12,826 nucleotides of DNA from a virus (taxonomy: Duplodnaviria > Heunggongvirae > Uroviricota > Caudoviricetes), in IMG/VR virus record IMGVR_UViG_2585427758_000013, one strand, 5' to 3'. Positions 1 to 12,826 of this stretch are shown piece by piece. Each line of letters starts with the position of its first letter. Positions within the stretch are counted from its first letter, which is position 1. The position numbers and the translations under genes were made by a program. The notes under the pieces were generated by a model that saw nothing but the letters and a program-made list of their open reading frames with translations, was not told where the DNA came from and made no database searches.

Positions 1-1293
<1,293 letters not shown>

Positions 1294-1598: not shown

Positions 1599-1739
1599 TT
1601 ACTGCTTACACTGTAAGAACGCCGCAAACTCCGCTCCCCAGAAACTCATCCGTATTTCACACAGCGAACCGTGCAGCATCCAGATGATGAGGATTGCCGT
1701 CACGCAGAACGTGATGGCCGTAAGCGATTTTTGCGACAT
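1599..1739 (-). CDS. hok: Hok/Gef-family type I toxin (46 aa small membrane peptide)
   Basis: Hand translation of the minus strand from ATG at 1739-1737 gives MSQKSLTAITFCVTAILIIWMLHGSLCEIRMSFWGAEFAAFLQCKQ, stop TAA at 1601-1599. It has a hydrophobic N-terminal helix, the SLCEIR motif and an AAF...C-terminal tail as in Hok/HokA/RelF. AAGGAG Shine-Dalgarno 8 nt upstream. Not in the supplied ORF track (too short). Confidence 0.6.
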   Translation of the reverse strand: MSQKSLTAITFCVTAILIIWMLHGSLCEIRMSFWGAEFAAFLQCKQ

Positions 1740-1929: not shown

Positions 1930-2190
1930 TTAATTCTGAGATAAAGGCAAACTCATCTGATTGTTTCCCCTGTGTGAAGCTGGCAACTCATGCCACGGGA
2001 TACCTTCTGAAGAGTGAACGCCGGGGGCGTGTTTCGATGTGAATTTATGGAAAGCTTCCAGTGTTGAGAAACTTATGCCGCATTCCAGGTTGTTACACTG
2101 GTAATATTTTTTCCGTACGGTGTTTGAATCATTTTCCGAACGACTGGTGCGGATACGGGCAGATGCGCCACAAAGCGGACAACGGAACAT
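1930..2190 (-). CDS. ogr: Ogr/Delta-family zinc-finger late-gene transcriptional activator
   Basis: 86-aa ORF beginning MFRCPLCGASARIRTSR...YYQCNNLECGISF: the CPLC...QCxNxxC zinc-finger signature and MF.CPLC N-terminus of P2 Ogr. Lies directly downstream of gpD on the same strand, as in P2. Confidence 0.8.
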   Translation of the reverse strand: MFRCPLCGASARIRTSRSENDSNTVRKKYYQCNNLECGISFSTLEAFHKFTSKHAPGVHSSEGIPWHELPASHRGNNQMSLPLSQN

Positions 2191-2230: not shown

Positions 2231-3340
2231 TCACTCTGTTTCCGCTATCCATTCCGGGATTTTTGCCTCAAGCTCAAGCTGCGTGGTAAAACCGCTGTTA
2301 TCAATGGTGTGCTCGGCTTTTGCAATGATCCAGTCCTGATTATCAATCTCGCTTTTAAATCCTGTTACCGTGCCATGCATTTCGGGGTAGAGTTCTGCAC
2401 GTCCACGCGCCAGCGTGATGGAGAATGATGCGGCTCCGCGTTGTAGTTGCTGCCACTTTGCCGCCGCTGCGCGTCTTGCTGTCTGCTCGTTCTGATAAGT
2501 CTTGCGTAACACAAACACATTGCCTTCCGCGCCTTCCATATAATCACCTTCACGGCTGCTGCTTTTCTCCTTTTTGGGTTTTGGCGGTTTACGGCGTTTC
2601 ACGCTGACTTTTTTCTTTTTCCCGTAATTAAGATCAAGCCAGTAAGCGCGTACCCCCGTATACGCTTCGCGGTCAGCAATGCGGAACTGATGGCGATCGC
2701 CGCTGCTGCGTGTGATGGCAAACGATGGCAACGGCTGGCCCTGTGCGTTCACGCCACCGCCGGGCATGATGAATAACAGATTACCGCTTTTTACCGTGGT
2801 GATTGCGCCCAGCATTTCCGCCATGCGCGTAAGGAAGGACATGTCGCTTTCTTCGGTCTGGTCGGCGTGGTCGATTTCGATATCCATCAGCATTTCGCTG
2901 ATTTGCGGTTTCAGACCATACCGATGAGCGATGGCGGATACCACACGCTCAACGGTCACATCATGCCAGGACACCTCACGTTTAACGTTAAATTCATCCC
3001 GAAAATCTGCGCTTCTGGCTGAAACAGTCAGCCTGTCCGGCGGTCCTTCGTGAGCGATTTCATCAACAATGTAAGTGCCTTTTTCTGTCAGCGGTTCTCC
3101 TTTCCAGCCAATGAGAACCGTCAGGCGCGCGCCCCGTGGCGGTAGCTGCAACTGACCATCCGCATCATCCAGCGTGATGGTGAGCTGGTCCGCCTCAAAT
3201 CCCCGGTTGTCGGTCAGTGACAGGCTCATCAGGCACTCTGCCACGCCTGACAGCGTTTTACCCTCCGCGAGAATATCAAAATCCGGCATTTTCACGGGGT
3301 CTGTGCCCTGACTGAGCAATTGCATGGTGGTGTCGGTCAT
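2231..3340 (-). CDS. D: P2 gpD-family tail protein (late control gene D)
   Basis: Translation carries gpD-family blocks (IDHADQTEESD, RAYW, KWQQLQRG, GFKSEIDNQDW). The ORF track extends to 3472, but the likely start is the ATG at 3340-3338 (MTDTTMQLL), which is preceded by GGAGGGAG. Confidence 0.85.
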   Translation of the reverse strand: MTDTTMQLLSQGTDPVKMPDFDILAEGKTLSGVAECLMSLSLTDNRGFEADQLTITLDDADGQLQLPPRGARLTVLIGWKGEPLTEKGTYIVDEIAHEGPPDRLTVSARSADFRDEFNVKREVSWHDVTVERVVSAIAHRYGLKPQISEMLMDIEIDHADQTEESDMSFLTRMAEMLGAITTVKSGNLLFIMPGGGVNAQGQPLPSFAITRSSGDRHQFRIADREAYTGVRAYWLDLNYGKKKKVSVKRRKPPKPKKEKSSSREGDYMEGAEGNVFVLRKTYQNEQTARRAAAAKWQQLQRGAASFSITLARGRAELYPEMHGTVTGFKSEIDNQDWIIAKAEHTIDNSGFTTQLELEAKIPEWIAETE

Positions 3341-3497
3341 CTGCTCCCTCCCTGTGCGGCATGGTCGCATGTGCGTGCGGAGGGGGTTACTGCTTTTTGT
3401 TGTCGCCGTGGCGGGAGAACGGCGCAGGGGGGAGATTACGCGCGTGGTGGGTGATGATTGTTGCCGAATCATTTAACGGATACAAGGGGCTGAAGCT

Positions 3498-4682
3498 ATG
3501 AGTGAAACTCGTTTTCATGGTGCCCGTGTTACGGAAAGTACCGACCTGGTAACAGCGATTAACGATGTTGATTCCAGCGTTATCGGTATCGTGGCAACGG
3601 CGGATGATGCGGACGCGAAGCTGTTCCCGCTGAACAAGCCCACACTGCTGACCCGCGTCAATGACGTGCTGGGAAAATGCGGGACAACGGGGACGCTTTA
3701 TCGTGCGCTTAAGGCCATCGCAGACCAGGTGAGCACAAAGGTGATCGTCGTTCGCGTGGCTGAACACAAAGAAGAAAACGGAAAGACGCAGGATCAACTG
3801 GTTATCGGTGGTTCTGAATCTGACGGCAGCTATACGGGGATGTATGCGCTGCTTGTTGCAGAGCAGGATGAAAGCATCGGATACCGTCCGCGTATTCTGG
3901 CCGCGCCGGAGCTGGACACGGAGGCGGTGACAAAATCCCTGTGCGTGATTGCGGGTAAACTGCGCGCGTTTGTGTATGCCGCATGTCATGGTTGTAACAC
4001 GATGGCTGAGGCGATTACCTACCGCCAGAAATTCAACGAACGTGAGGTGATGCTCTTATGGCCTGACTTCATCGCCTACAACCCGAAAAGTGGCAAAAAC
4101 GAAACGTTCCCCGCGCCTGCTTATGCGTGCGGCCTTCGTGCGTACATTGACCATGAGCAGGGCTGGCACAAATCGCTGTCCAACGTTCCGGTTAAAAATG
4201 TGCTGGGGATGTCGAGGCATGTGTTCTGGTCGTTACAGGCCGAAGACAGTGATGCCAACAGCCTCAACAACAAAGAAATCACGACCATTATTCGTCGTAA
4301 CGGGTTCCGCTTCTGGGGCAACCGCACACCGGAAACGAACGCCTACATCTTTGAGGTGTATACCCGAACCGCACAGGTGCTGGCTGATTCAATTGCGGAA
4401 GCGCAGTTTGAAACCATCGACAGTCCACTGACGCCTGCGAACGTGAAGGATGTTATCAGTGCCATCAGGGCAAAACTGGATTCGCTGGTTACTGCCGGGA
4501 AACTGATTGGCGCGGAGTGCTGGTATGACGTGGTGGATAACGGCACCACGGATTTACGTCAGGGACGTGTGCGTATTCGCTACAAATATACGCCCGTTCC
4601 GCCACTGGAAGACATGGAGCTTTACCAGACGTTTACTGATGAATTCTTTGGTCCCGCATTTGCGGTGCTGGGAGGTGCCTGA
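3498..4682 (+). CDS. FI: contractile tail sheath protein (P2 gpFI family)
   Basis: 394-aa ORF with sheath-family blocks (LRAFVYAA, WPDF, EQGWHKSLSNV, RRNGFRFWGNRT, YKYTPVPPLE). AAGGGG Shine-Dalgarno upstream of the ATG. Confidence 0.9.
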   Translation: MSETRFHGARVTESTDLVTAINDVDSSVIGIVATADDADAKLFPLNKPTLLTRVNDVLGKCGTTGTLYRALKAIADQVSTKVIVVRVAEHKEENGKTQDQLVIGGSESDGSYTGMYALLVAEQDESIGYRPRILAAPELDTEAVTKSLCVIAGKLRAFVYAACHGCNTMAEAITYRQKFNEREVMLLWPDFIAYNPKSGKNETFPAPAYACGLRAYIDHEQGWHKSLSNVPVKNVLGMSRHVFWSLQAEDSDANSLNNKEITTIIRRNGFRFWGNRTPETNAYIFEVYTRTAQVLADSIAEAQFETIDSPLTPANVKDVISAIRAKLDSLVTAGKLIGAECWYDVVDNGTTDLRQGRVRIRYKYTPVPPLEDMELYQTFTDEFFGPAFAVLGGA

Positions 4683-5194
4683 TGGCTGTACCAAAACATC
4701 TTCGCTTTTTTACGCTGTTTGTGGATGGTGAAAACGAAGTGGGTAAGGTGACGTCCGTCACTCTGCCTAAGCTGACGCGCAAAACCGACAGCTACCGGGG
4801 TGGTGGCATGATGGGGGCGGTAAGTATTGATCTCGGTCTGGACGACTCCGCGCTTGATGCGAGCTTTGTCATGGGGGGAGCTGTTCGTGCGCTGTTCCTT
4901 AAATATGGCGGCACGATTGACGGCACGCTGCTGCGTTTTGCGGGTGAATACTACACCGATGCAGAAAGCGATCTGTATGAAATCGAGATGCGCGGGCGTG
5001 TGACGGAAATTGATATGGGGGAGGCCAAACAGGGCGAAGCCACATCACACACTTACGCTGTCAAAAACACCTACTACAAGCTGAGCGTTAACGATCGCCC
5101 GCTGTGGGAAATCGACCTGTTGAACCACATCTACCGGAAGGACGGCAAGGACATTGTGCCCGATCGCATCCGTTCCGCGCTCGGGCTTGGCTGA
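4682..5194 (+). CDS. FII: tail tube protein (P2 gpFII family)
   Basis: 170-aa ORF directly after the sheath gene. Its start overlaps the FI stop (TGATG); GGAGGTG Shine-Dalgarno. Size and position match P2 FII. Confidence 0.88.
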   Translation: MAVPKHLRFFTLFVDGENEVGKVTSVTLPKLTRKTDSYRGGGMMGAVSIDLGLDDSALDASFVMGGAVRALFLKYGGTIDGTLLRFAGEYYTDAESDLYEIEMRGRVTEIDMGEAKQGEATSHTYAVKNTYYKLSVNDRPLWEIDLLNHIYRKDGKDIVPDRIRSALGLG

Positions 5195-5248
5195 TAAGTA
5201 ATATGCAGGCGGCGCAGTGCGTCGCCTCTGACTGAAAGGAGTTTCCTG

Positions 5249-5614
5249 ATGAAAGAGACGAAAAACATCGATACCGAAAACACGGTAGTTACTGACACTG
5301 TGAAAGAAACCAGTGAGCGTGGCGTAAAACTTACCCAACCAATTGAGCGAGGCGGCGAAAAAATCACGTATGTGGAGATCACCGGGGCTATTGAGCAGGC
5401 TGGATCTCTGCGAGATTTGTCGCTGTCTGATGTGCTGAATCTGAAAGCGGAATCCATGTTTACGCTGCTGTCACGCGTGACCTCGCCACGACTGGATGAA
5501 GTGACGATCAAAAAAATGGCATCCCGTGATTTTATTCAGTTATGTGTGGTTGCCGTAAATTTTTTGAGCGGTGCGGACTCTGGCGGGAAGAGCGAACAGG
5601 CGACGGAAGCCTGA
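5249..5614 (+). CDS. E: tail assembly chaperone (P2 gpE family), frame-0 product
   Basis: 121-aa ORF with AAAGGAG Shine-Dalgarno, located between the tube and tape-measure genes. Contains an internal slippery run (see 5560-5566). Confidence 0.8.
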   Translation: MKETKNIDTENTVVTDTVKETSERGVKLTQPIERGGEKITYVEITGAIEQAGSLRDLSLSDVLNLKAESMFTLLSRVTSPRLDEVTIKKMASRDFIQLCVVAVNFLSGADSGGKSEQATEA

Positions 5615-5778
5615 TCACGGTTGTGTGCTTTGAGCACATAGAAGACTTTGTGGCGGATATTGCCGCCATTTTTAACTGGTCGCCCGCCGAAATCTTCATG
5701 ATGACGCCCGGCGAAGTGGTTAGCTGGCGTGAGCGGGCGGCACTTCGCAGCGGGAATGCAGACAATGAAGACTCTTGA
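5249..5778 (+). CDS. E': E+E' fusion chaperone made by programmed -1 ribosomal frameshift
   Basis: A -1 slip on T6G (5560-5566) moves the E frame into ORF 5542-5778 (...NFF-ERCGLWREER...). The E' frame ends at TGA 5776-5778, overlapping the tape-measure start. Same logic as P2 E/E' and lambda G/GT. Confidence 0.65.
5560..5566 (+). other. slippery heptamer TTTTTTG (recoding signal for E/E')
   Basis: Six T followed by G at 5560-5566, in frame so that AAT-TTT-TTG can slip back one base. Confidence 0.6.
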
Positions 5779-8572
5779 TATCCGGGTCGCTTTCAGCGCC
5801 GTTGACAGGCTGACCCGGCCTGCCGAAAACGCCCGCCGCCTGATGGGGCAGTTTGGTGACTCCATCCAGCGAACGCAGGGGGCGATCAAAAATCTCGAGC
5901 GTCAGGCGCGATCATTTGAGCGCGCCCGCGACGCTGTCAGTAAAGCGGATGCGGGTATCGTGAAAGCACGACGCCAGCTTAACGCCCTTAATCAGTTACA
6001 ACGCACGGGTACAGTGCTCAGCGAAAAACAACAAAAGCTGATGCAGCAGTTAAGCACCCGGCTTGAACGCCTGAATGAATCGCGCACACGGGAAATTCAG
6101 AAAATGCGGGAGCTTGGCGGAGAGCTGAAACGCCACGGCATTTCCCTGACAGGCAGCGATAACACCATCCAGCAGGCCATCAGACGCACCGAACAGTACA
6201 ACAACCAGCTTGAACGCGAACGGCAGGCGCTTGCGCGTGTAACGCGGGCGCGTGAGCGGTATTCGCGCGCGCAGGAAACCGCGGGAAAACTGAAAACAGG
6301 TGGTGCGCTGGCAATTGGTGCGGCAGCGGCGGGCGGCTATGCTGCCGGGCGTTTTTTGCAGCCTGCGATCGGGTTCGGCAAAGAGATGTCCCGCGTTCAG
6401 GCACTGACGCGAATCGACAAAAACAGCCCGCAGTTTAAGGCGCTGCGTGAGCAGGCGTTAAAACTTGGCTCTGAAACACAGTTTACTGCGAGTGATGCCG
6501 CCAGTGGGCAGAGCTTTCTGGCAATGGCTGGTTTTACTCCGCAGGCCATTCAGGCCGCATTGCCCGGTGTTCTTAATATGGCGCTGGCAGGTGGCGTCGA
6601 ACTCGGCGAGACGGCGGATATAGGCTCCAATATCCTCACACAGTTCAACCTGACAGCCGATCAAATGGACCGGGTTGGCGATACGCTGACAGCGGCATTC
6701 ACCCGGACCAATACTGATTTACGCGCGCTGGGCGAAACCATGAAGTATACCGGTCCGGTTGCCGCAAAACTTGGTATCAGTCTTGAAGAAGCGGCGGCTA
6801 TGGCCGGGATGCTTGCCAATAATGGTCTTCGCGGAAGCGATGCTGGCACGGCCATGCGCGCAAGTCTGTCCCGCCTTGCATCACCGCCAAAAGCTGCGGC
6901 TGATGCACTGAAAGAGCTGGGGGTGTCAGTTGCTGACGCCAGAGGCAAAATGCGCCCGATGGAGGATGTGCTGCTTGATCTCTATAAGGCGACACAAAAA
7001 TACGGACAGGTGGACCAGGTCTCCTTCTTCAAGGACATCGCCGGAGAAGAGGCGTTCGTTGGTTTGCAGACGCTTGTTGCGGCGGCTGGTTCAGGAGAGC
7101 TGCAAAAACTGACCAGAGAATTGCAGGGGGCAAGGGGAGAGGCCGATCGCGTTGCAAAAGTAATGGCCGATAATCTTGATGGGGACCTGAAAAATCTCGA
7201 CAGCGCATGGGAAGGTCTTCGTATTCGCATCAGTGATCTGGTTGACGGTCCGCTGCGTTCTGTCACGCAGTGGCTCACGCGGGTGCTTGAAAAAATCACC
7301 TCGCTGGCGCAGGCCCATCCGGTACTGACGCGCCAGCTACTGATAGCAGGCGGTGCGTTGCTGGCAATGACTGCAACGATTGGCTCGTTGTCACTGGTTA
7401 TTGGGGTGCTTTACGGGAAGCTGGCCACCCTGCGTCTTGGTTTTGACATTCTTACCCGGTCAATGAATGTCGTCAGGGTGTTGCCTGCGCTGTGGGGAAT
7501 GGTGACGGGTTCCGTTTCTTTGCTGGGAGGCGCTATCGGGGCGCTGTTCAGTCCGGTTGGTCTTATCGTGGCTGCGCTTGCCGGAGCTGCCGTTCTTATC
7601 TGGAAATACTGGGATCCCATCAGGGCATTTTTTGCCGGGGTGTTCAGCGGGATTATGGAAAGGCTGAACCCGTTGCGTGAAACCTTTGAACGGTTTGGTC
7701 CTGTTTTTGACGCAATCGGAAGCGGGATCAGCCAGGTGTTTAACTGGTTTAAATCGCTGCTGTCACCGATGGAGTCCAGCAAGGAAACGCTGGATAAATG
7801 TACCAGTGCTGGCGAGATATTCGGTAACGCTCTTGGTGGCGCGCTACAGCTTGTTCTGACGCCTGCAAAAATGTTGCTGGATACGCTGGCGTGGATACTT
7901 GAAAAACTCGGTGTGCTTCCGGATGAAGCGGAAAGGGCGAGAAAGAAAATCGAAGACGCACAGCGTGCGGCCATTCTTCAGGACAAGGTTGCTCTGTTTC
8001 AGGGAGACATTGCGAAAATCAATCCGCCGAAGTCTGCGGAAAATGGCAATGGCACCGGAGGCGATAAACCCAAAGACAACAAACCGCTCACAGACAGCAA
8101 TACCGGCACGCTACGCAGACTCAGCAAAATTGCTGATAACACAGGTAAGCTGGTTGATGAGACAAAAAAACGTATTGGCCCCGGCGATATTGTCTTTAAG
8201 AACCTGCCCCGCGCACTTGCTGTTCGTGGGGAGTGGCAGGAGCGGAAGATTGCACAGGTCAGTAAGCCTGCCCCCGCAATGAATATCACCCCCGTGGTCC
8301 CGGCTCCGCTGCCTCCGGCGCTGGTCCCTGTTGTTGCGGCCAGCTCCCGCCCGGTGGCGGAGGCCATACGATCTCCAGTGGCATCAGTTCCTGTAACTTC
8401 CCGTAACCGGGAGCCTGTTGCCTCCGGATTTGGTGGTGAAATTCATGTTCATCTGCATAACGTTGTTACGCAGAATCCCCGCGAACTGGCGAAACTGGTC
8501 GGTGAAATGGTCAGGGCAGAAATGGAACGGCGCGCCCGTGCCGGGCGTGGCAGTTTTTACGATAAAGATTGA
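5756..8572 (+). CDS. T: tail tape measure protein (P2 gpT family)
   Basis: Very long ORF with a coiled-coil N-terminal third, central hydrophobic/Gly-Ala-rich segments and a Pro/Val-rich C-terminus, placed after E/E'. The ORF track starts at a GTG at 5729; ATGs at 5756 and 5765 are alternative starts, so the start is uncertain. Confidence 0.88.
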   Translation: MQTMKTLDIRVAFSAVDRLTRPAENARRLMGQFGDSIQRTQGAIKNLERQARSFERARDAVSKADAGIVKARRQLNALNQLQRTGTVLSEKQQKLMQQLSTRLERLNESRTREIQKMRELGGELKRHGISLTGSDNTIQQAIRRTEQYNNQLERERQALARVTRARERYSRAQETAGKLKTGGALAIGAAAAGGYAAGRFLQPAIGFGKEMSRVQALTRIDKNSPQFKALREQALKLGSETQFTASDAASGQSFLAMAGFTPQAIQAALPGVLNMALAGGVELGETADIGSNILTQFNLTADQMDRVGDTLTAAFTRTNTDLRALGETMKYTGPVAAKLGISLEEAAAMAGMLANNGLRGSDAGTAMRASLSRLASPPKAAADALKELGVSVADARGKMRPMEDVLLDLYKATQKYGQVDQVSFFKDIAGEEAFVGLQTLVAAAGSGELQKLTRELQGARGEADRVAKVMADNLDGDLKNLDSAWEGLRIRISDLVDGPLRSVTQWLTRVLEKITSLAQAHPVLTRQLLIAGGALLAMTATIGSLSLVIGVLYGKLATLRLGFDILTRSMNVVRVLPALWGMVTGSVSLLGGAIGALFSPVGLIVAALAGAAVLIWKYWDPIRAFFAGVFSGIMERLNPLRETFERFGPVFDAIGSGISQVFNWFKSLLSPMESSKETLDKCTSAGEIFGNALGGALQLVLTPAKMLLDTLAWILEKLGVLPDEAERARKKIEDAQRAAILQDKVALFQGDIAKINPPKSAENGNGTGGDKPKDNKPLTDSNTGTLRRLSKIADNTGKLVDETKKRIGPGDIVFKNLPRALAVRGEWQERKIAQVSKPAPAMNITPVVPAPLPPALVPVVAASSRPVAEAIRSPVASVPVTSRNREPVASGFGGEIHVHLHNVVTQNPRELAKLVGEMVRAEMERRARAGRGSFYDKD

Positions 8573-8578
8573 GGAGTC

Positions 8579-9073
8579 ATGGCCATGATGATGATCTACG
8601 GCATGTTTGTTTTTGAGCTGCGTACGTTGCCGCATCAGCAGTTACAGCAAAACAAAAGCTGGCGGCATGTGAAAAATGAACGCGTTAACCGTTCAGCAAG
8701 CTGGCAGTATATCGGGGCAGGCGATGATCGCATCGTTCTTTCTGGTGTGCTTTATCCTGAAATTACAGGTGGCGAAGTGTCGCTTTCGTTGCTGACCACG
8801 CAGGCATATACAGGACGCCCCTGGCCTCTGATTGATGGTGTCGGGCAGATTTACGGCATGTATGTCCTGACCGGAACGAATACGACCCGCTCCGAGTTTG
8901 ATCGCTACGGTAAGGCGAAAAAGATAGAGTTTTCACTGACTCTTGAACGCTGTGATGAGGATTTGCGGGAGCGCCTGCAATCCTCATCGTTCAGTGATAT
9001 GCTGTCCGGCTTCAAAGATAAGGTCACATCATCCCTTAACAGCGCGGCCAGCTCCGTTAAAGGGCTGTTTTGA
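8579..9073 (+). CDS. U: tail protein gpU family
   Basis: 164-aa ORF immediately after the tape measure. GAGGAG precedes it; ATGs at 8579, 8585, 8588 and 8591 are all possible starts. Confidence 0.8.
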   Translation: MAMMMIYGMFVFELRTLPHQQLQQNKSWRHVKNERVNRSASWQYIGAGDDRIVLSGVLYPEITGGEVSLSLLTTQAYTGRPWPLIDGVGQIYGMYVLTGTNTTRSEFDRYGKAKKIEFSLTLERCDEDLRERLQSSSFSDMLSGFKDKVTSSLNSAASSVKGLF

Positions 9074-9080
9074 TTAACGC

Positions 9081-9110
9081 AAAACCGCTAATGGTCAGAT
9101 TAGCGGTTTT
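9081..9110. terminator. bidirectional hairpin between convergent gpU and invertase
   Basis: aaaaccgctaat-ggtcag-attagcggtttt: a perfect 10-bp stem flanked by A-run and T-run. The invertase stop codon (9100-9102) lies inside the stem. Confidence 0.6.
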
Positions 9111-9699
9111 CATTTTCCTGAGTCTGCCTGGTTGTTTCTTCAGCCTGTATATCGCCTACAGGGTGATAACGATAAATCGTCGATATGCCGATGTCGTAAA
9201 TGATCGCCAGTTGTTTCCTGTCATGACCGTTTTTAATCAGCCTCGCTATTTGCTCGTGTTGTTCTTTTGTCAACTTCGGGCGACGTCCGCCAATGCGTCC
9301 TTGTGCGCGTGCTGCTGCCAGCCCGGCCAGTGTACGCTCTACAATTAATTCACGTTCCATTTCGGCTAAAGCCCCCATGACGTGAAAAAAGAAACGCCCC
9401 ATGGGTGTTGATGTGTCAATGCTGTCCGTCAGACTACGGAAATTAACACCTTTTTCCCGCAATTCCTCAATAAGCGTGATCAGGTGTTTCATACTTCTGC
9501 CCAGTCTGTCCAGCTTCCAGACAACCAGCGTATCTCCTTCTGATAGCGTTCTGAGCAGTTTTTTCAATCCCGGTCTGGCTGATTTCGTTCCGCTGATTTT
9601 ATCTTCAAAAATCAGTTCACATCCTGCGCAGTTCAGTGCATTGCGTTGTAAATCCGTGTTCTGGTCATTTGTTGACACACGAACATAGCCAATTTGCAT
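9100..9699 (-). CDS. serine-recombinase DNA invertase (Hin/Gin/Pin/Cin family)
   Basis: N-terminus MQIGYVRVSTNDQNTDLQRNAL with the catalytic Ser in the GYVRVST block, then TLVVWKLDRLGRSMKHL, FFHVMGALAEMERELI and a C-terminal helix-turn-helix. AGAGGA Shine-Dalgarno 8 nt before the ATG at 9699; the longer ORF to 9894 is probably an upstream extension. Confidence 0.9.
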   Translation of the reverse strand: MQIGYVRVSTNDQNTDLQRNALNCAGCELIFEDKISGTKSARPGLKKLLRTLSEGDTLVVWKLDRLGRSMKHLITLIEELREKGVNFRSLTDSIDTSTPMGRFFFHVMGALAEMERELIVERTLAGLAAARAQGRIGGRRPKLTKEQHEQIARLIKNGHDRKQLAIIYDIGISTIYRYHPVGDIQAEETTRQTQENENR

Positions 9700-9753
9700 A
9701 AAAAACATCCTCTTTGTTTCGTGAAAAATACATAGTTGGTATAGGTAGGGATA

Positions 9754-9779
9754 AAAACGAAAACGTTGGTTTGGGGGAA
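9754..9779 (+). other. putative invertase crossover site 1 (hix/gix-like, 12-2-12)
   Basis: aaaacgaaaacg TT ggtttgggggaa. The inner ...GAAAACG-TT-GGTTT... matches the AAAACC-AA-GGTTT dyad of hix/gix-type sites as I recall them. Confidence 0.55.
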
Positions 9780-10277
9780 GGTTCTGCGCTGCCTGTTGGT
9801 GTGCCCGTTCCGTGGCCCTCAGCAACACCACCAACGGGCTGGCTGAAATGTAACGGCGCAGCATTTTCTTCTGAAATGTATCCCGGACTGGCAAAGGCTT
9901 ACCCCACCAATAAATTACCGGATTTACGGGGTGAATTTATTCGTGGCTGGGATGATGGACGTAGTGCGGATGCGGGGAGAACAATATTATCCGCTCAAGG
10001 TGATGCCATACGTAATATCTATGGTGAGTTCAAGACTGTAAACACTGAAAATTATTCAATATGGGAATCAGTAGGCTCGTTTAAGGGGGCAGTGGTGCCT
10101 TTAAATTCCTCAACAAACAATAGTTATTTCTCCTTAGTCAGAAGTATGGTGACAGAAAGGACAGACGGCGCTGTTTACCCAAAAGTGATTGGCCTTGATG
10201 CTTCAAAAATTGTTCCAACTGCAAACGAAAACCGCCCACGCAACATTGCGTTTAATTACATCGTAAGGGCAGCATGA
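9754..10277 (+). CDS. silent tail-fibre C-terminal (receptor-binding tip) cassette 1; no start codon of its own
   Basis: Frame opens through crossover site 1 as ...ENVGLGEGSALPVGVPVPWPSATPPTGWLKCNGAAFS...PDLRGEFIRGWDDGR, then a unique core, then the conserved end NRPRNIAFNYIVRAA and stop. Sequence upstream of the site is invertase promoter, not fibre coding. Confidence 0.75.
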
Positions 10278-10296
10278 AAACGTTGGTTTGGGGGAA
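10271..10296 (+). other. putative invertase crossover site 2
   Basis: agcatgaaaacg TT ggtttgggggaa. It spans the stop codon of cassette 1 and the first codons of cassette 2. Confidence 0.55.
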
Positions 10297-10821
10297 GGCT
10301 CTGCACTGCCCGTTGGTGTACCTGTTCCGTGGCCCTCAGCCACTCCACCAACGGGCTGGCTGAAATGCAACGGCGCAGCATTTTCTCCTGAAGATTACCC
10401 CAAACTGGCACAGGCTTACCCCGCGAACAAATTACCGGATCTACGGGGTGAATTTATCCGTGGCTGGGATGATGGACGTGGCTTGGATGCTGGGCGTGCC
10501 TTGCTAAGTCTTCAGGATGACTCTTTTGAAGCGCACAGGCATGAGTCCTTTTTTTATGCGGGTATTTCACGTAATGAGATCCCATTAAAAAATCTTCCAA
10601 GTTCAGACGAGATGCTGACTTTAAGTTCCACAACTAATGCCTTGTCCCCGGACGATATTGATGCCACCAACTCGTTAATTGGTAATGACGATTACAACTG
10701 TCTTATCGAAGGGAATAAAAATAACAAACGAACAGCGACAGGACTGAGTACCAGTATTGTCGGCACAGCAGAAACACGCCCCCGCAACGTTGCATTCAAT
10801 TACATCGTAAGAGCCGCATGA
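10288..10821 (+). CDS. silent tail-fibre tip cassette 2 (gene segment; frame is open from 10267 through site 2)
   Basis: Same conserved N-module and C-terminal TRPRNVAFNYIVRAA around a unique core carrying an HRH motif. The M in the ORF track is a TTG inside the crossover site, not a real start. Confidence 0.75.
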   Translation: MGEGSALPVGVPVPWPSATPPTGWLKCNGAAFSPEDYPKLAQAYPANKLPDLRGEFIRGWDDGRGLDAGRALLSLQDDSFEAHRHESFFYAGISRNEIPLKNLPSSDEMLTLSSTTNALSPDDIDATNSLIGNDDYNCLIEGNKNNKRTATGLSTSIVGTAETRPRNVAFNYIVRAA

Positions 10822-10840
10822 AAACGTTGGTTTGGGGAAA
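10815..10840 (+). other. putative invertase crossover site 3
   Basis: cgcatgaaaacg TT ggtttggggaaa (one substitution in the outer right half). Confidence 0.55.
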
Positions 10841-11260
10841 GGCTCTGCGCTGCCCGTTGGTGTGCCCGTTCCGTGGTCCTCAGCAACACCACCAACGGGC
10901 TGGCTGAAATGTAACGGCGCAGCATTTTCTTCTGAAATGTATCCCGGACTGGCAAAGGCTTACCCCACCAATAAATTACCGGATTTACGGGGTGAATTTA
11001 TCCGTGGCTGGGATGATGGGCGCGGGATTGATGCGGGACGTACCCTGCTTTCAGGGCAGGATGGTACAAGTTTTTCTCATTACGGAGGTAATTTCGACAT
11101 TGGGTCTGGTCATTCAATCAATAACTATGACCAAATTGTTTCTAACCAACCAAGCTTTTCCCGTTTTTCATTTGCAGGACCTTCACGAGGTGATGGGGTC
11201 AATTATGTAACCATTCGTCCTCGTAATATTGCGTTTAATTACATCGTAAGGGCAGCATGA
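10832..11260 (+). CDS. silent tail-fibre tip cassette 3 (gene segment)
   Basis: Conserved N-module (nearly identical in DNA to cassette 1), short unique core, conserved C-terminal RPRNIAFNYIVRAA. Confidence 0.75.
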   Translation: MGKGSALPVGVPVPWSSATPPTGWLKCNGAAFSSEMYPGLAKAYPTNKLPDLRGEFIRGWDDGRGIDAGRTLLSGQDGTSFSHYGGNFDIGSGHSINNYDQIVSNQPSFSRFSFAGPSRGDGVNYVTIRPRNIAFNYIVRAA

Positions 11261-11279
11261 AAACGTTGGTTTGGGGGAA
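11254..11279 (+). other. putative invertase crossover site 4
   Basis: agcatgaaaacg TT ggtttgggggaa, identical to site 2. Confidence 0.55.
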
Positions 11280-11747
11280 GGCTCTGCACTGCCCGTTGGT
11301 GTGCCTGTTCCATGGCCCTTAGCAACACCACCAACGGGCTGGCTGAAATGTAACGGTGCAGCATTTTCTTCTGAAATGTACCCCAAACTGGCAAAAGCCT
11401 ACCCCACTAATAAATTACCGGATTTACGCGGAGAATTTATCCGTGGCTGGGATGATGGGCGAGGAATTGATGCGGCACGCGCTTTATTGAGCATTCAAAA
11501 CGGGATGTTGGAAAAACACCGCCATATTGTTGTAGCTAACGATGGATATGACACAAAAGATGAATGGGAGTTGGCTACGATTTTCAAAAAAACATATACA
11601 CAAGGCAGGGGGCTTGATGCCACAAATACAGGAGGGAGTTTGATTCCATCACCAACGCTTCATTCACGAGGAAGTATTGGTAACACAGGTGGTAGTGAAA
11701 CCCGCCCCCGCAATATTGCATTTAACTATATCGTGAGGGCGGCTTAG
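11271..11747 (+). CDS. silent tail-fibre tip cassette 4 (gene segment)
   Basis: Conserved N-module, unique core with HRH motif, conserved C-terminal ETRPRNIAFNYIVRAA. Stop TAG at 11745-11747, convergent with the tfa stop 6 bp away. Confidence 0.75.
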   Translation: MGEGSALPVGVPVPWPLATPPTGWLKCNGAAFSSEMYPKLAKAYPTNKLPDLRGEFIRGWDDGRGIDAARALLSIQNGMLEKHRHIVVANDGYDTKDEWELATIFKKTYTQGRGLDATNTGGSLIPSPTLHSRGSIGNTGGSETRPRNIAFNYIVRAA

Positions 11748-11753
11748 TTATAT

Positions 11754-12365
11754 TCAACTGGCTGCTGCCAGTGGTATTTCCGGCAAGTTGATATCTGGTA
11801 CCATGTTTATATCCATTGCGTTCAGCGCGTCTATATAATCCAGCACGGCATTAAGCCGGGTGGTTTCTGCCTGCGTCAACTTCCGCCCGGCCTGCAACTT
11901 CAACTGAATCAGACTTATGGAAGCCATTGCCGCATCAGCCAGTGACTGGCGCTTGGTTTCTGCCGCTTCTACTGCGGCACGATGTTGTGCCTCAGTATCT
12001 GTCACCCATTTTTCACCATCCCATTTATCGTATGGTGTTAACGGGGCGATAGTGGTTGTAGTTTTCGGGTAGTCACCCAGCGCCGTGATTTCTTCGGTGT
12101 TTCCCGTGTCAGTGCTATAGACGGTTTCACCACGATGGTCTGGCGCATACTCCCATGAACTTAAATTCTCCGAACGGCGGATAGCATAGCCCGCTTTATG
12201 TGCGCCCGGGGCATCTAAACAGGAATTTGCCGGAATACCGACACCCACAGCAAGATATTCAGTTGATTCGGAAATATATTCCCGTGTCTCACCATCATAG
12301 TTATAAACGACGATGTTTCCTGCCTGTACGGCAATAAGGTCATCATTTAATATCGCGTTATTCAT
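11754..12365 (-). CDS. tail fibre assembly protein / chaperone (Tfa; P2 gpG or Mu U-like)
   Basis: 203-aa ORF whose ATG overlaps the stop of cassette 5 (TAATG), i.e. translationally coupled. C-terminal region (...LNAVLDYIDALNAMDINMVPDINLPEIP) resembles the conserved Tfa C-terminus. Confidence 0.8.
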   Translation of the reverse strand: MNNAILNDDLIAVQAGNIVVYNYDGETREYISESTEYLAVGVGIPANSCLDAPGAHKAGYAIRRSENLSSWEYAPDHRGETVYSTDTGNTEEITALGDYPKTTTTIAPLTPYDKWDGEKWVTDTEAQHRAAVEAAETKRQSLADAAMASISLIQLKLQAGRKLTQAETTRLNAVLDYIDALNAMDINMVPDINLPEIPLAAAS

Positions 12366-12826
12366 TATGCGGTTCTCACAATATAATTGAAGGCAATATT
12401 GCGTGGGCGGTTTTCATTCCCATCTGAGGATTCCGTTCTGTATTGACTGGTAAATCTACCGTTAATTGCACCTTGCCGGACGGCGTTATCTGTCGACAAC
12501 AGACTATCCCCTCTTTTGTCATTTGGCACCAGTACCGTGTTATCCCACGCATCCCATGACCGAATATTATGATAATGACTTCCTGTTAACCACCCCTGCA
12601 TGCTTAAGATGCCCCTTCCGGCATCCACCCCGCGCCCATCATCCCAGCCACGGATAAACTCACCGCGTAAATCAGGTAATTTTAACGTTGGGTAAACCTT
12701 TGCCAGATTTGGGTACATTTCAGAAGAAAATGCTGCACCGTTACATTTCAGCCAGCCCGTTGGTGGTGTGGCTGAGGGCCATGGAACAGGCACACCAACG
12801 GGCAGTGCAGAGCCTTCCCCCAAACC
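12365..12826 (-). CDS. expressed-position tail-fibre tip cassette 5; 3' part of the tail fibre gene, 5' end beyond the window
   Basis: Same conserved N-module (GEGSALPVGVPVPWPSATPPTGWLKCNGAAFS...) and C-terminus (RPRNIAFNYIVRTA) around a unique core with an HYH motif. The reading frame continues upstream off the window, so this is the C-terminus of a longer H-like fibre gene. Confidence 0.8.
   Translation of the reverse strand, partial: GLGEGSALPVGVPVPWPSATPPTGWLKCNGAAFSSEMYPNLAKVYPTLKLPDLRGEFIRGWDDGRGVDAGRGILSMQGWLTGSHYHNIRSWDAWDNTVLVPNDKRGDSLLSTDNAVRQGAINGRFTSQYRTESSDGNENRPRNIAFNYIVRTA
12815..12826 (-). other. right half of putative crossover site 5 (inverted orientation; core and left half lie beyond the window end)
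   Basis: The window ends ...ttcccccaaacc, the reverse complement of ggtttgggggaa. The core dinucleotide would be the next two bases past the window. Confidence 0.5.

Follow-up and report, generated by a model that had tools for sequence, protein, structure and literature searches.

The classical tail-fibre inversion systems, Mu G/Gin, P1 C/Cin and e14 P/Pin, work with two crossover sites and offer two alternatives, which in Mu and P1 are each paired with a separate tfa gene (U, U'). The Min system of the P1-related plasmid p15B reportedly has six sites and 240 isomers. Where the work of Sandmeier, Iida, Arber and colleagues (1990-1992) is cited in PMC5903667 and PMC6906374, it appears as a multiple-inversion system. 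In EPEC E2348/69, a P2-like prophage carries a three-site 'shufflon', in which whole-genome sequencing, with PCR, revealed four coexisting variants (Goldberg et al. 2014, PMC4272514), and in Phi2 of the ST131 strain EC958 alternative tail-fibre orientations were recovered in PacBio reads (Forde et al. 2014, PMC4134206). In Enterobacter, the tail-fibre shufflon of FR-phi combines a gin recombinase with three isoforms of the fibre C-terminus, which were quantified from long reads; locked isoforms differ in infectivity, and one uses FhuA (PMC13418256).

We analysed a stretch of 12,826 nucleotides of viral DNA (the window), the right-hand part of which holds an invertase and an array of fibre-tip cassettes. 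From its sequence and from related loci, and with a probability that we put at about 90%, we propose that this locus is a Min-type (Gin/Cin/Pin/Min, 'Din' family) multiple-inversion switch for the tail-fibre receptor-binding tip of a P2-like prophage of E. coli. The features of the array are listed below, each cassette being counted from its crossover core as far as its stop codon.

9081..9110, plus strand: intrinsic-terminator-like hairpin with a stem of 12 pairs and then a T-rich tail, between gpU and the invertase gene (3' end)
9100..9699, minus strand: intact Gin/Min-type serine DNA invertase, 199 aa (Pfam Resolvase and HTH_7)
9754..9779, plus strand: crossover site s1, adjoining the invertase, AAACGAAAACG TT GGTTTGGGGGAA
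9766..10277, plus strand: C1, silent tip with collar N-module, variable core and conserved C-terminus
10271..10296, plus strand: crossover site s2, AGCATGAAAACG TT GGTTTGGGGGAA, its left half including the TGA stop of C1
10283..10821, plus strand: C2, silent tip with an HxH motif
10815..10840, plus strand: crossover site s3
10827..11260, plus strand: C3, silent tip
11254..11279, plus strand: crossover site s4
11266..11747, plus strand: C4, silent tip with an HxH motif, followed by no crossover site
11754..12365, minus strand: tfa, the sole tail-fibre assembly (Tfa) chaperone gene (Caudo_TAP, E 9e-31)
12365..12826, minus strand: C5, tip with an HxH motif, cut by the window edge
12815..12826, minus strand: right half-site of s5, TTCCCCCAAACC on the plus strand, its core and left half lying beyond the window

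The likeness to p15B Min, the p15B side of which we take from citations and from a P1-like E. coli phage-plasmid (L012) with 13 cassettes of the same families, C1-C5 included, is that a serine invertase of the Din family acts on more than two 26-bp sites, that the invertible segments overlap, and that a single constant 5' part of the fibre gene is joined to several alternative 3' parts; the window has five sites in a chromosomal P2-like prophage, whereas p15B has six on a P1-related plasmid. The E2348/69 prophage belongs to the same lineage (98.7% identity in invertase/U, 99.3% in tfa and 89.7% in the tape-measure gene) and shares the site types, cassettes C3, C4 and C5 and the unit [C4> <tfa <C5]; the window adds the one-way cassettes C1 and C2, which would give five tips and 48 states against three tips and four states. 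The EC958 Phi2 sites (TCCTCAATTACC TT GGTTTAGGAGAA and GAGAGATAAACG TT GGTTTGGGGGAA) and the din-family consensus share the form and the TT core of the window sites, and the Phi2 sites likewise sit in a 227-bp imperfect inverted repeat encoding a Collar domain, but Phi2 was reported as a single invertible segment of 2067 bp (PMC4134206, Table 3 for the sites). With Mu, P1 and e14 the locus has in common the invertase family (~73% identity to Gin), the site architecture and the placing of a constant fibre part outside and variable parts inside invertible DNA, whereas its five sites go with five alternatives and a single tfa. FR-phi, likened here by description, is a different phage with different cassettes. 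In the R64 shufflon, too, multiple inversion swaps the C-terminal segments of a surface adhesin and inversion is favoured over deletion; it works, however, through the tyrosine recombinase Rci on sfx repeats in the conjugative pilus gene pilV, whereas the sole recombinase of the array is a serine invertase and its target a tail fibre. R64 is thus an analogue and not a relative, and the 'shufflon-like' of the original prediction holds for function and not for the recombinase.

As P2-like (Peduoviridae) we counted prophages whose late-control and tail genes are of P2 type, namely ogr, D, FI, FII, E/E', T and U, then H, I, J, W and V. Ogr_Delta, Phage_GPD and P2_GpU domains were found in the window (Pfam), relatives have the other P2 genes, for head, lysis and baseplate, and the U and invertase genes are 88-89% identical at the nucleotide level to those of the Xuanwuvirus P88 group. 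By these comparisons the prophage, as the P2-type tail already predicted for it suggested, appears to be P2-like (Peduoviridae), closest to Xuanwuvirus P88 and the Gemsvirus group, and inserted beside serS in E. coli. Its FI-U block is inverted relative to the order in P2 itself, as is that of P88, and the hairpin at 9081..9110 probably ends the FI-U operon ahead of the array. Other prophages at the serS site (H72, H79-H81) have unrelated fibre modules, either Mu-like with two alternatives or with an acetyltransferase and no invertase, so that this family of prophages is mosaic in its fibre module. Neither an Rfam scan nor a tRNA scan of the window returned a match.

A domain and homology search, proposed beforehand as a check on invertase and cassettes alike, bore out the assignment of 9100-9699 to a Gin/Hin/Pin/Cin-type invertase. 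The protein matches Resolvase (E 2e-51) and HTH_7 in Pfam, aligns with Mu Gin (PDB 4m6f, 3uj3) at E about 1e-91 and ~73% identity over 185 residues (counted from the alignment), and carries the motif YVRVSTNDQ with the catalytic Ser9; with a catalytic N-domain bearing the active-site serine and a C-terminal HTH, it falls in the invertase subclass of small serine recombinases. Such enzymes are described, in a passage of PMC3798978 and in titles cited there, as acting with a Fis-bound enhancer of ~65 bp that has two Fis sites, lies near one crossover site and is classically located within the invertase gene, in its 5' part. In the window the invertase start lies 67 bp from s1, a geometry that would fit a Fis enhancer; a crude motif found several Fis-like 15-mers 100-137 bp into the gene and no pair at 48 +/- 1 bp, and the window system may depend on Fis and an enhancer. 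We also considered an Ogr-type late promoter (TGT-N12-ACA) at 9715-9732, in the spacer between invertase and s1, and rejected it: by our own positioning, no plausible -10 element lies far enough from it, and it is not significant, the window containing two such motifs against ~3.3 expected by chance.

Four crossover sites lie on the plus strand of the window and the right half of a fifth on its minus strand, with the pattern of AAACG at the end of the left half, then TT and GGTTTGGGGGAA. They are 26-bp sites of gix/cix/mix type and of the Din family, with imperfect inverted 12-bp halves around a 2-bp core and sites in inverted orientation, and one opens each cassette. The last base of the window is the last base of the s5 right half-site, and the core would fall at 12827-12828. 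The five cassettes, four on the plus strand and one on the minus strand, emerged much as first described: all match the Pfam Collar domain (E about 1e-14) and run open from the site through to the conserved C-terminus. The N-modules form a four-copy direct repeat and, with C5, four inverted-repeat pairs of 210-232 nt with 84-89% complementarity, while a 47-nt repeat family spans the shared C-termini; these repeats are far beyond chance. The cassettes can be aligned to the tip of T4 gp37 (2xgf, residues 26-91 and 219-242, including the C-terminal NIAFNYIVRLA) and with the short tail fibre 9cuy (E 1.5e-17), and metal-binding-type HxH motifs occur in C2, C4 and C5. In the gp37 structure, the two conserved ends pack together as one collar domain. 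The collar N-part and the final ~15 residues of the cassettes (NIAFNYIVRAA) match both of these ends, which bracket the variable receptor-binding core, and this explains why conserved ends surround unrelated cores; on alignment, the tips appear to follow the collar-and-tip pattern of T4 gp37/gp12.

Cassettes C1-C4 had been predicted to lack both start codon and promoter. Our scan agreed as to promoters, finding no promoter-like site positioned to express the silent cassettes, but each has an in-frame TTG, from which RefSeq annotates a separate 'phage tail protein'; by eye, no Shine-Dalgarno sequence was seen before these TTGs. For C5, coupling to Tfa was evident, in that the ATG of tfa overlaps the C5 stop codon (ATAATG), whereas its predicted continuation into a fibre gene rests on relatives: the constant gene H lies outside the window, and C5 is fused to it in frame in L004, L016 and L018. 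By analogy with these, C5 is presumably fused to the constant fibre gene in the window prophage as well, and is probably the tip expressed in the window isomer.

Comparison with related loci supports the multi-site inversion that the original prediction had read into the array. The nearest match (L022) is 100% identical in T, U, the invertase gene, tfa and four of the five cassettes, with one SNP in C4, and has the order INV- C2+ C3+ C1+ [C5+ tfa+ C4-] followed by H, three inversions from the window state; L005, at the same serS site and 99.4-100% identical in the compared segments, has C1+ C3+ C2+ [C5+ tfa+ C4-] followed by H. Two assemblies of E2348/69 are also in different states, H-C3 and H-C5. 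Fusion to H was found for every cassette type in some E. coli genome: besides C5, C1 is fused in L010 and L012, C2 in L003 and L011 (its nucleotides identical to those of the window copy), C3 in at least 10 genomes, the E2348/69 reference assembly among them, and C4 in L005, L017 and L021-L023. Across 19 loci, all one-way cassettes (55/55) have the orientation that site-specific inversion predicts. With identical backbones in different states, the DNA between the sites does, by this comparison, invert, and would probably do so in the window lysogen itself. In a simulation of the isomers, five sites made 48 states reachable; the same model gives 240 for six sites, in agreement with the p15B figure, and four for three sites, as many as the PCR-confirmed variants of E2348/69 (PMC4272514).

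It could be supposed that the invertase is a bystander and that the cassettes are shuffled across their ~230-bp N-modules by gene conversion or by homologous recombination that depends on RecA. These modules are indeed long repeats, 84-89% identical, and two short mosaic tracts (C3 positions 12-51 in L003, C5 positions 55 and 59 in L005) indicate that homologous recombination or gene conversion also acts on them; C3 of L003, a four-cassette locus, bears the first 51 nt of C1, as if direct-repeat recombination had deleted the C1 core, and cassettes are duplicated in L001, L011, L012 and L014. In the inversion isomers, however, moved cassettes retain the entire 230-nt N-module with zero differences, where N-modules differ mutually at 23-39 positions, and the left half-sites stay: in every locus that of s1 remains by the invertase, the right half of s1 moving with the adjacent cassette. 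Because the N-module travels unchanged while the flanking left half-sites stay put, the exchange maps to the 26-bp site, in an interval of about 11-55 bp containing the TT core. Moreover, the same class of sites inverts at high frequency within cultures (PMC4134206, PMC4272514), and ~50% of reads would not be expected from RecA acting on repeats ~15% diverged. We therefore regard RecA as a very unlikely cause of the shuffling; homologous recombination best explains cassette loss and gain.

Under the Min-type reading, the invertase would recombine any two 26-bp sites in inverted orientation. The left half-sites would be fixed, at the end of H, in the spacer by the invertase or in the last codons and stop of the preceding cassette, and the right half-sites would open each cassette; each inversion would therefore bring another cassette into the reading frame of H, behind it. 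C1, C2 and C3 would behave as one-way segments and [C4> <tfa <C5], with C4 as one arm and a single tfa, as a two-headed central unit resembling the Mu G segment, so that five sites would yield 2 x 4! = 48 isomers and a choice of five fibre tips, promoterless cassettes being shuffled onto one constant fibre gene. Tip exchange would presumably switch host range.

Less probable still than the RecA account is that the array is a frozen relic, its cassettes decaying pseudogene fragments that neither switch nor form functional fibres. C1-C4 do lack start signals of their own, cassettes are frameshifted in some relatives (X6 in L013), and the D gene of some relatives is annotated as shortened, with a pseudogene fragment after it. 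A relic would sit poorly, however, with an intact invertase ORF, with five open cassettes out of five, with 100% identical backbones that differ in array state alone, and with the head, lysis and tail genes annotated as intact in L005 (over 20 kb, scaffold protein to tail fibre).

The single tfa lies directly downstream of C5 in the window and in 19/19 comparison loci. It is antisense to H in 10/19 loci, which is awkward if each tip needs Tfa in cis. Since tfa is confined to the central invertible unit, half of the isomers that can form have it running against the fibre operon. For a single tfa that is antisense in about half of the isomers, we found no explanation in the cited literature, and none is known to us. 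Three readings suggest themselves: the collar-type tips apart from C5 may fold without Tfa, expression of tfa may be independent of orientation, or about half of induced cells may produce virions with defective fibres. The identical Tfa protein is listed in 547 blocks of a public assembly index, and the 10 places inspected were P2-like and Mu-like prophages. In a related reading, P2-like, Mu-like and P1-like elements have their cassettes, their sites and a 100% identical Tfa in common, which would then represent a tip library, movable between co-resident prophages by invertases in trans. Taken together, we regard these readings as rather unlikely. Convergent late transcription through the inverted FI-U block, giving tfa in both orientations, was considered and rejected since P88, phage 500465-2 and L006-L009 share the gene order (L006-L008 being serS prophages with classical two-alternative fibres and L009 having no invertase), and the arrangement is thus not array-specific; the strong terminator after U also counts against it.

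A five-cassette array on a P2-type tail had at first matched no arrangement that could be placed. This did not stand, as cassette-cassette junctions occur in 640/5426 complete E. coli genomes and a three-site version is known in the same lineage (PMC4272514). Novelty of the array is not supported, a multi-tip switch being known and common in E. coli genomes, and the locus adds an example and not a new principle. As regards annotation, CDSs labelled 'phage tail protein', both here and in hundreds of other E. coli genomes, are silent cassettes, not genes, and in assembly, contigs are prone to break or mis-join at the crossover sites. Receptor-binding libraries for phages or tailocins could be designed with the simple segment rule and with cassettes this short, whose ends are conserved. 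For the temperate phage, the locus would be a compact means of spreading bets on host range, with five tips and 48 DNA states held in 3.1 kb and served by one enzyme.

The window begins with E. coli serS, followed by a P2-like prophage, and holds the following features.

Features of the window
1-1293: serS of E. coli, at the window start, before the prophage
1599-1739, minus strand: Hok/Gef-type toxin ORF (46 aa), between serS and ogr
1930-2190, minus strand: ogr
2231 to about 3340, minus strand: gpD gene
3498-9073, plus strand: tail genes FI, FII, E/E', T and U, followed by the invertase and cassette region
9100-9699, minus strand: serine invertase (199 aa)
11754-12365, minus strand: tfa, encoding the tail-fibre assembly chaperone
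12815-12826: right half-site of the fifth crossover site

Domain, repeat and alignment evidence recovered every feature described in the original prediction. The invertase has Resolvase and HTH_7 domains and is about 73% identical to Mu Gin (PDB 4m6f) over 185 residues, Ser9 motif included, by a hand count of the alignment. Each of the four plus-strand and one minus-strand tail-fibre tip cassettes (C1 to C4 and C5, respectively) contains a Pfam Collar domain. The proposed shared N-module corresponds to the first ~210-232 nt, which make up a family of direct repeats plus four inverted-repeat pairs of 84-89% complementarity, and the shared C-terminus to a second repeat family comprising the last 47 nt of the cassettes. 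The predicted coupling to tfa is likewise present, the single tfa overlapping the stop codon of C5.

The two conserved ends of the cassettes correspond to the two conserved ends of the T4 gp37 tip. The full protein made by C5 and the constant fibre gene H aligns with that tip (2xgf) at the collar segment and at the extreme C-terminus (gp37 NIAFNYIVRLA), and also with the short tail fibre 9cuy (E 1.5e-17). C2, C4 and C5 carry an HxH motif after the collar, a motif that follows the collar in gp37 and gp12 too. In gp37, both ends are packed together in a single collar domain, and receptor binding falls to the variable core.

All cassettes open with ...AAACG TT GGTTTGGGGGAA. The inter-cassette site reads AGCATGAAAACG TT GGTTTGGGGGAA, its left half holding the TGA stop of the preceding cassette; the left half-site adjoining the invertase is AAACGAAAACG, and relatives have TTCTTGATTACC as the left half where the constant fibre gene ends. 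Parsed as 12-2-12, we assign these sites to the din family of crossover sites. Sites of the same form and with the same TT core occur in prophage Phi2 of EC958 (ST131), for which both orientations were obtained from PacBio reads, and the site consensus is given for Mu, P1, e14, p15B and Shigella boydii (Forde et al., PMC4134206, sites in Table 3). The final base of the window coincides with the end of the fifth site's right half, so the fusion of C5 to H is not directly visible. A contig break at this point would fit branching of the assembly graph at the crossover, as might arise from a culture mixed for the inversion or from a second prophage sharing the end of the H gene.

One-way segments are C1, C2 and C3, each opening with a right half-site (5') and closing with a left one (3'); in the central two-headed unit [C4> <tfa <C5], both ends are right half-sites. 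Plus cassettes must therefore lie between the invertase and the unit, and minus cassettes between the unit and H, a rule kept by 55 of 55 one-way cassettes (19 loci). The simulated number of states is 2(n+1)!: three sites give 4 states, as in E2348/69, the five sites of the window give 48, and six sites give 240, which is the number of isomers of the six-site Min region of p15B. The orientation rule alone cannot separate site-specific from homologous inversion, whereas mapping of the exchange points can. The 19 loci in which sites and cassettes were mapped come from complete genomes and from public assemblies.

Arrangements of the window and four comparison loci (invertase drawn to the left, H to the right; + and -, cassette orientation)
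Window: C1+ C2+ C3+ [C4+ tfa- C5-]
L022: C2+ C3+ C1+ [C5+ tfa+ C4-], then H; T, U, invertase and tfa 100% identical to the window, one SNP over five cassettes
L005: C1+ C3+ C2+ [C5+ tfa+ C4-], then H; same serS site, compared segments 99.4-100% identical to the window
L003: four cassettes; backbone segments 100% identical to the window
L018: three cassettes; backbone segments 100% identical to the window

Three inversions separate the state of the window from that of L022, and three from that of L005. Relocated cassettes carry their whole N-module along without a single difference (between one cassette and another, N-modules differ at 23-39 positions), while the left half-sites keep their places. 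From these observations, we conclude that exchange is confined to the site instead of being distributed across the 230-bp homology. Each of the five cassette types is joined to H in some genome, C3 in at least 10 records, and two assemblies of E2348/69 differ in state (H-C3 in NC_011601.1 versus H-C5 in NZ_CP059840.2), consistent with the four variants verified by PCR in that strain (PMC4272514).

The locus is real, and invertase-driven multi-site switching of tips was correctly predicted, given the exchange of intact N-modules at the sites and the identical backbones in different states. The arrangement, which the prediction had not been able to place, belongs to the known multiple-inversion tail-fibre switches of Min/Gin type, here with five sites; its three-site sibling in E2348/69, of the same prophage lineage, has already been demonstrated experimentally (PMC4272514).

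The arrays also vary in size. L003 lacks the C1 core and has the first 51 nt of C1 on C3, a mosaic that is the expected product of homologous recombination between directly repeated N-modules, and duplicated cassettes are present in L001, L011, L012 and L014. We conclude that homologous recombination alters the size of the array and that the invertase permutes it.

There is only one copy of tfa, always immediately 3' of C5 within the central unit. In half of the states that the simulation allows, and in 10 of the 19 loci, it runs antisense to H. Tips other than C5 may do without Tfa, tfa may carry its own promoter, or cells with antisense tfa may make defective fibres. A sigma-70-like match lies at 12679-12706 (minus strand) in the C5 N-module, directed towards the C5 core and tfa (CTGGCA, 16-nt spacer, TAAAAT; 9 of 12 positions); if functional, it would allow transcription of tfa in either orientation of the unit. 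We treat it as a lead only, because the scan overall gave fewer such sites than shuffled sequence.

The spacer between the invertase start codon and the first crossover site (9700-9753, 54 bp) contains a perfect TGT-N12-ACA dyad, TGTTTCGTGAAAAATACA (9715-9732), of the type found in Ogr-activated P2 late promoters. Two such dyads were found in the window against 3.3 expected, not significant by count, and we rejected this one as an Ogr late promoter because, by our positioning, it is not at -55 from any obvious -10.

The gpD ORF (2231-3472) is open over 413 codons, and the start is likely the ATG near 3340 (MTDTTMQLL..., 369 aa), matching annotations of 366-369 aa in relatives; in L001 and L005, the RefSeq D gene is only 801 nt, with a pseudogene fragment adjoining. 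Annotations of relatives call the toxin ORF 'Hok/Gef family protein', and that of P88 has 'MokW-like host killing'; no Rfam family, Sok and hok mRNA included, gave a match at the gathering threshold.

The serS-ogr-D-FI junction is present at ≥80% coverage in 912 of the 5426 complete genomes of E. coli. Among deposited phages, the closest are those of the Xuanwuvirus P88 group, which are 88-89% identical across U and the invertase gene, together with Gemsvirus 500465-2. The FI-FII-E-T-U block is encoded on the strand opposite to its neighbours, D/ogr to the left and H-I-J-W-V to the right, whereas all these genes run in one direction in P2. Since P88, 500465-2 and all serS-site relatives examined have the opposed block, whether or not an invertase is present, this is a lineage-level gene order and not a product of the array. 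In other strains, serS-site prophages (L006-L009) with a junction ~98% identical differ greatly in their fibre modules: some contain an invertase and a Mu-like S/tfa pair with two alternatives, and one has a serine acetyltransferase gene but lacks an invertase. The fibre and Z/fun hotspot is exchanged as one unit among serS-site prophages.

A 100-nt cassette-junction probe matched 640 of the 5426 complete genomes at ≥80% coverage, on chromosomes and plasmids and in up to 12 places per genome. Arrays of six cassettes are found in P2-like prophages (L010, L011, L013), arrays of up to six in prophages with Mu-like tail gene order (L014, L021) and one of 13 in a P1-like phage-plasmid (L012); the identical Tfa protein occurs in 547 blocks of the assembly index. 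In L014-L017, L020, L021 and L023, this identical Tfa (203 aa) and cassette families C2, C4, C5, X1, X3 and X4 are located at the end of prophages of Mu-like tail order (U-X-D-V-W-J-I-H), with a 190-aa invertase adjoining host genes, which suggests that unrelated types of phage have recently exchanged the entire switch module.
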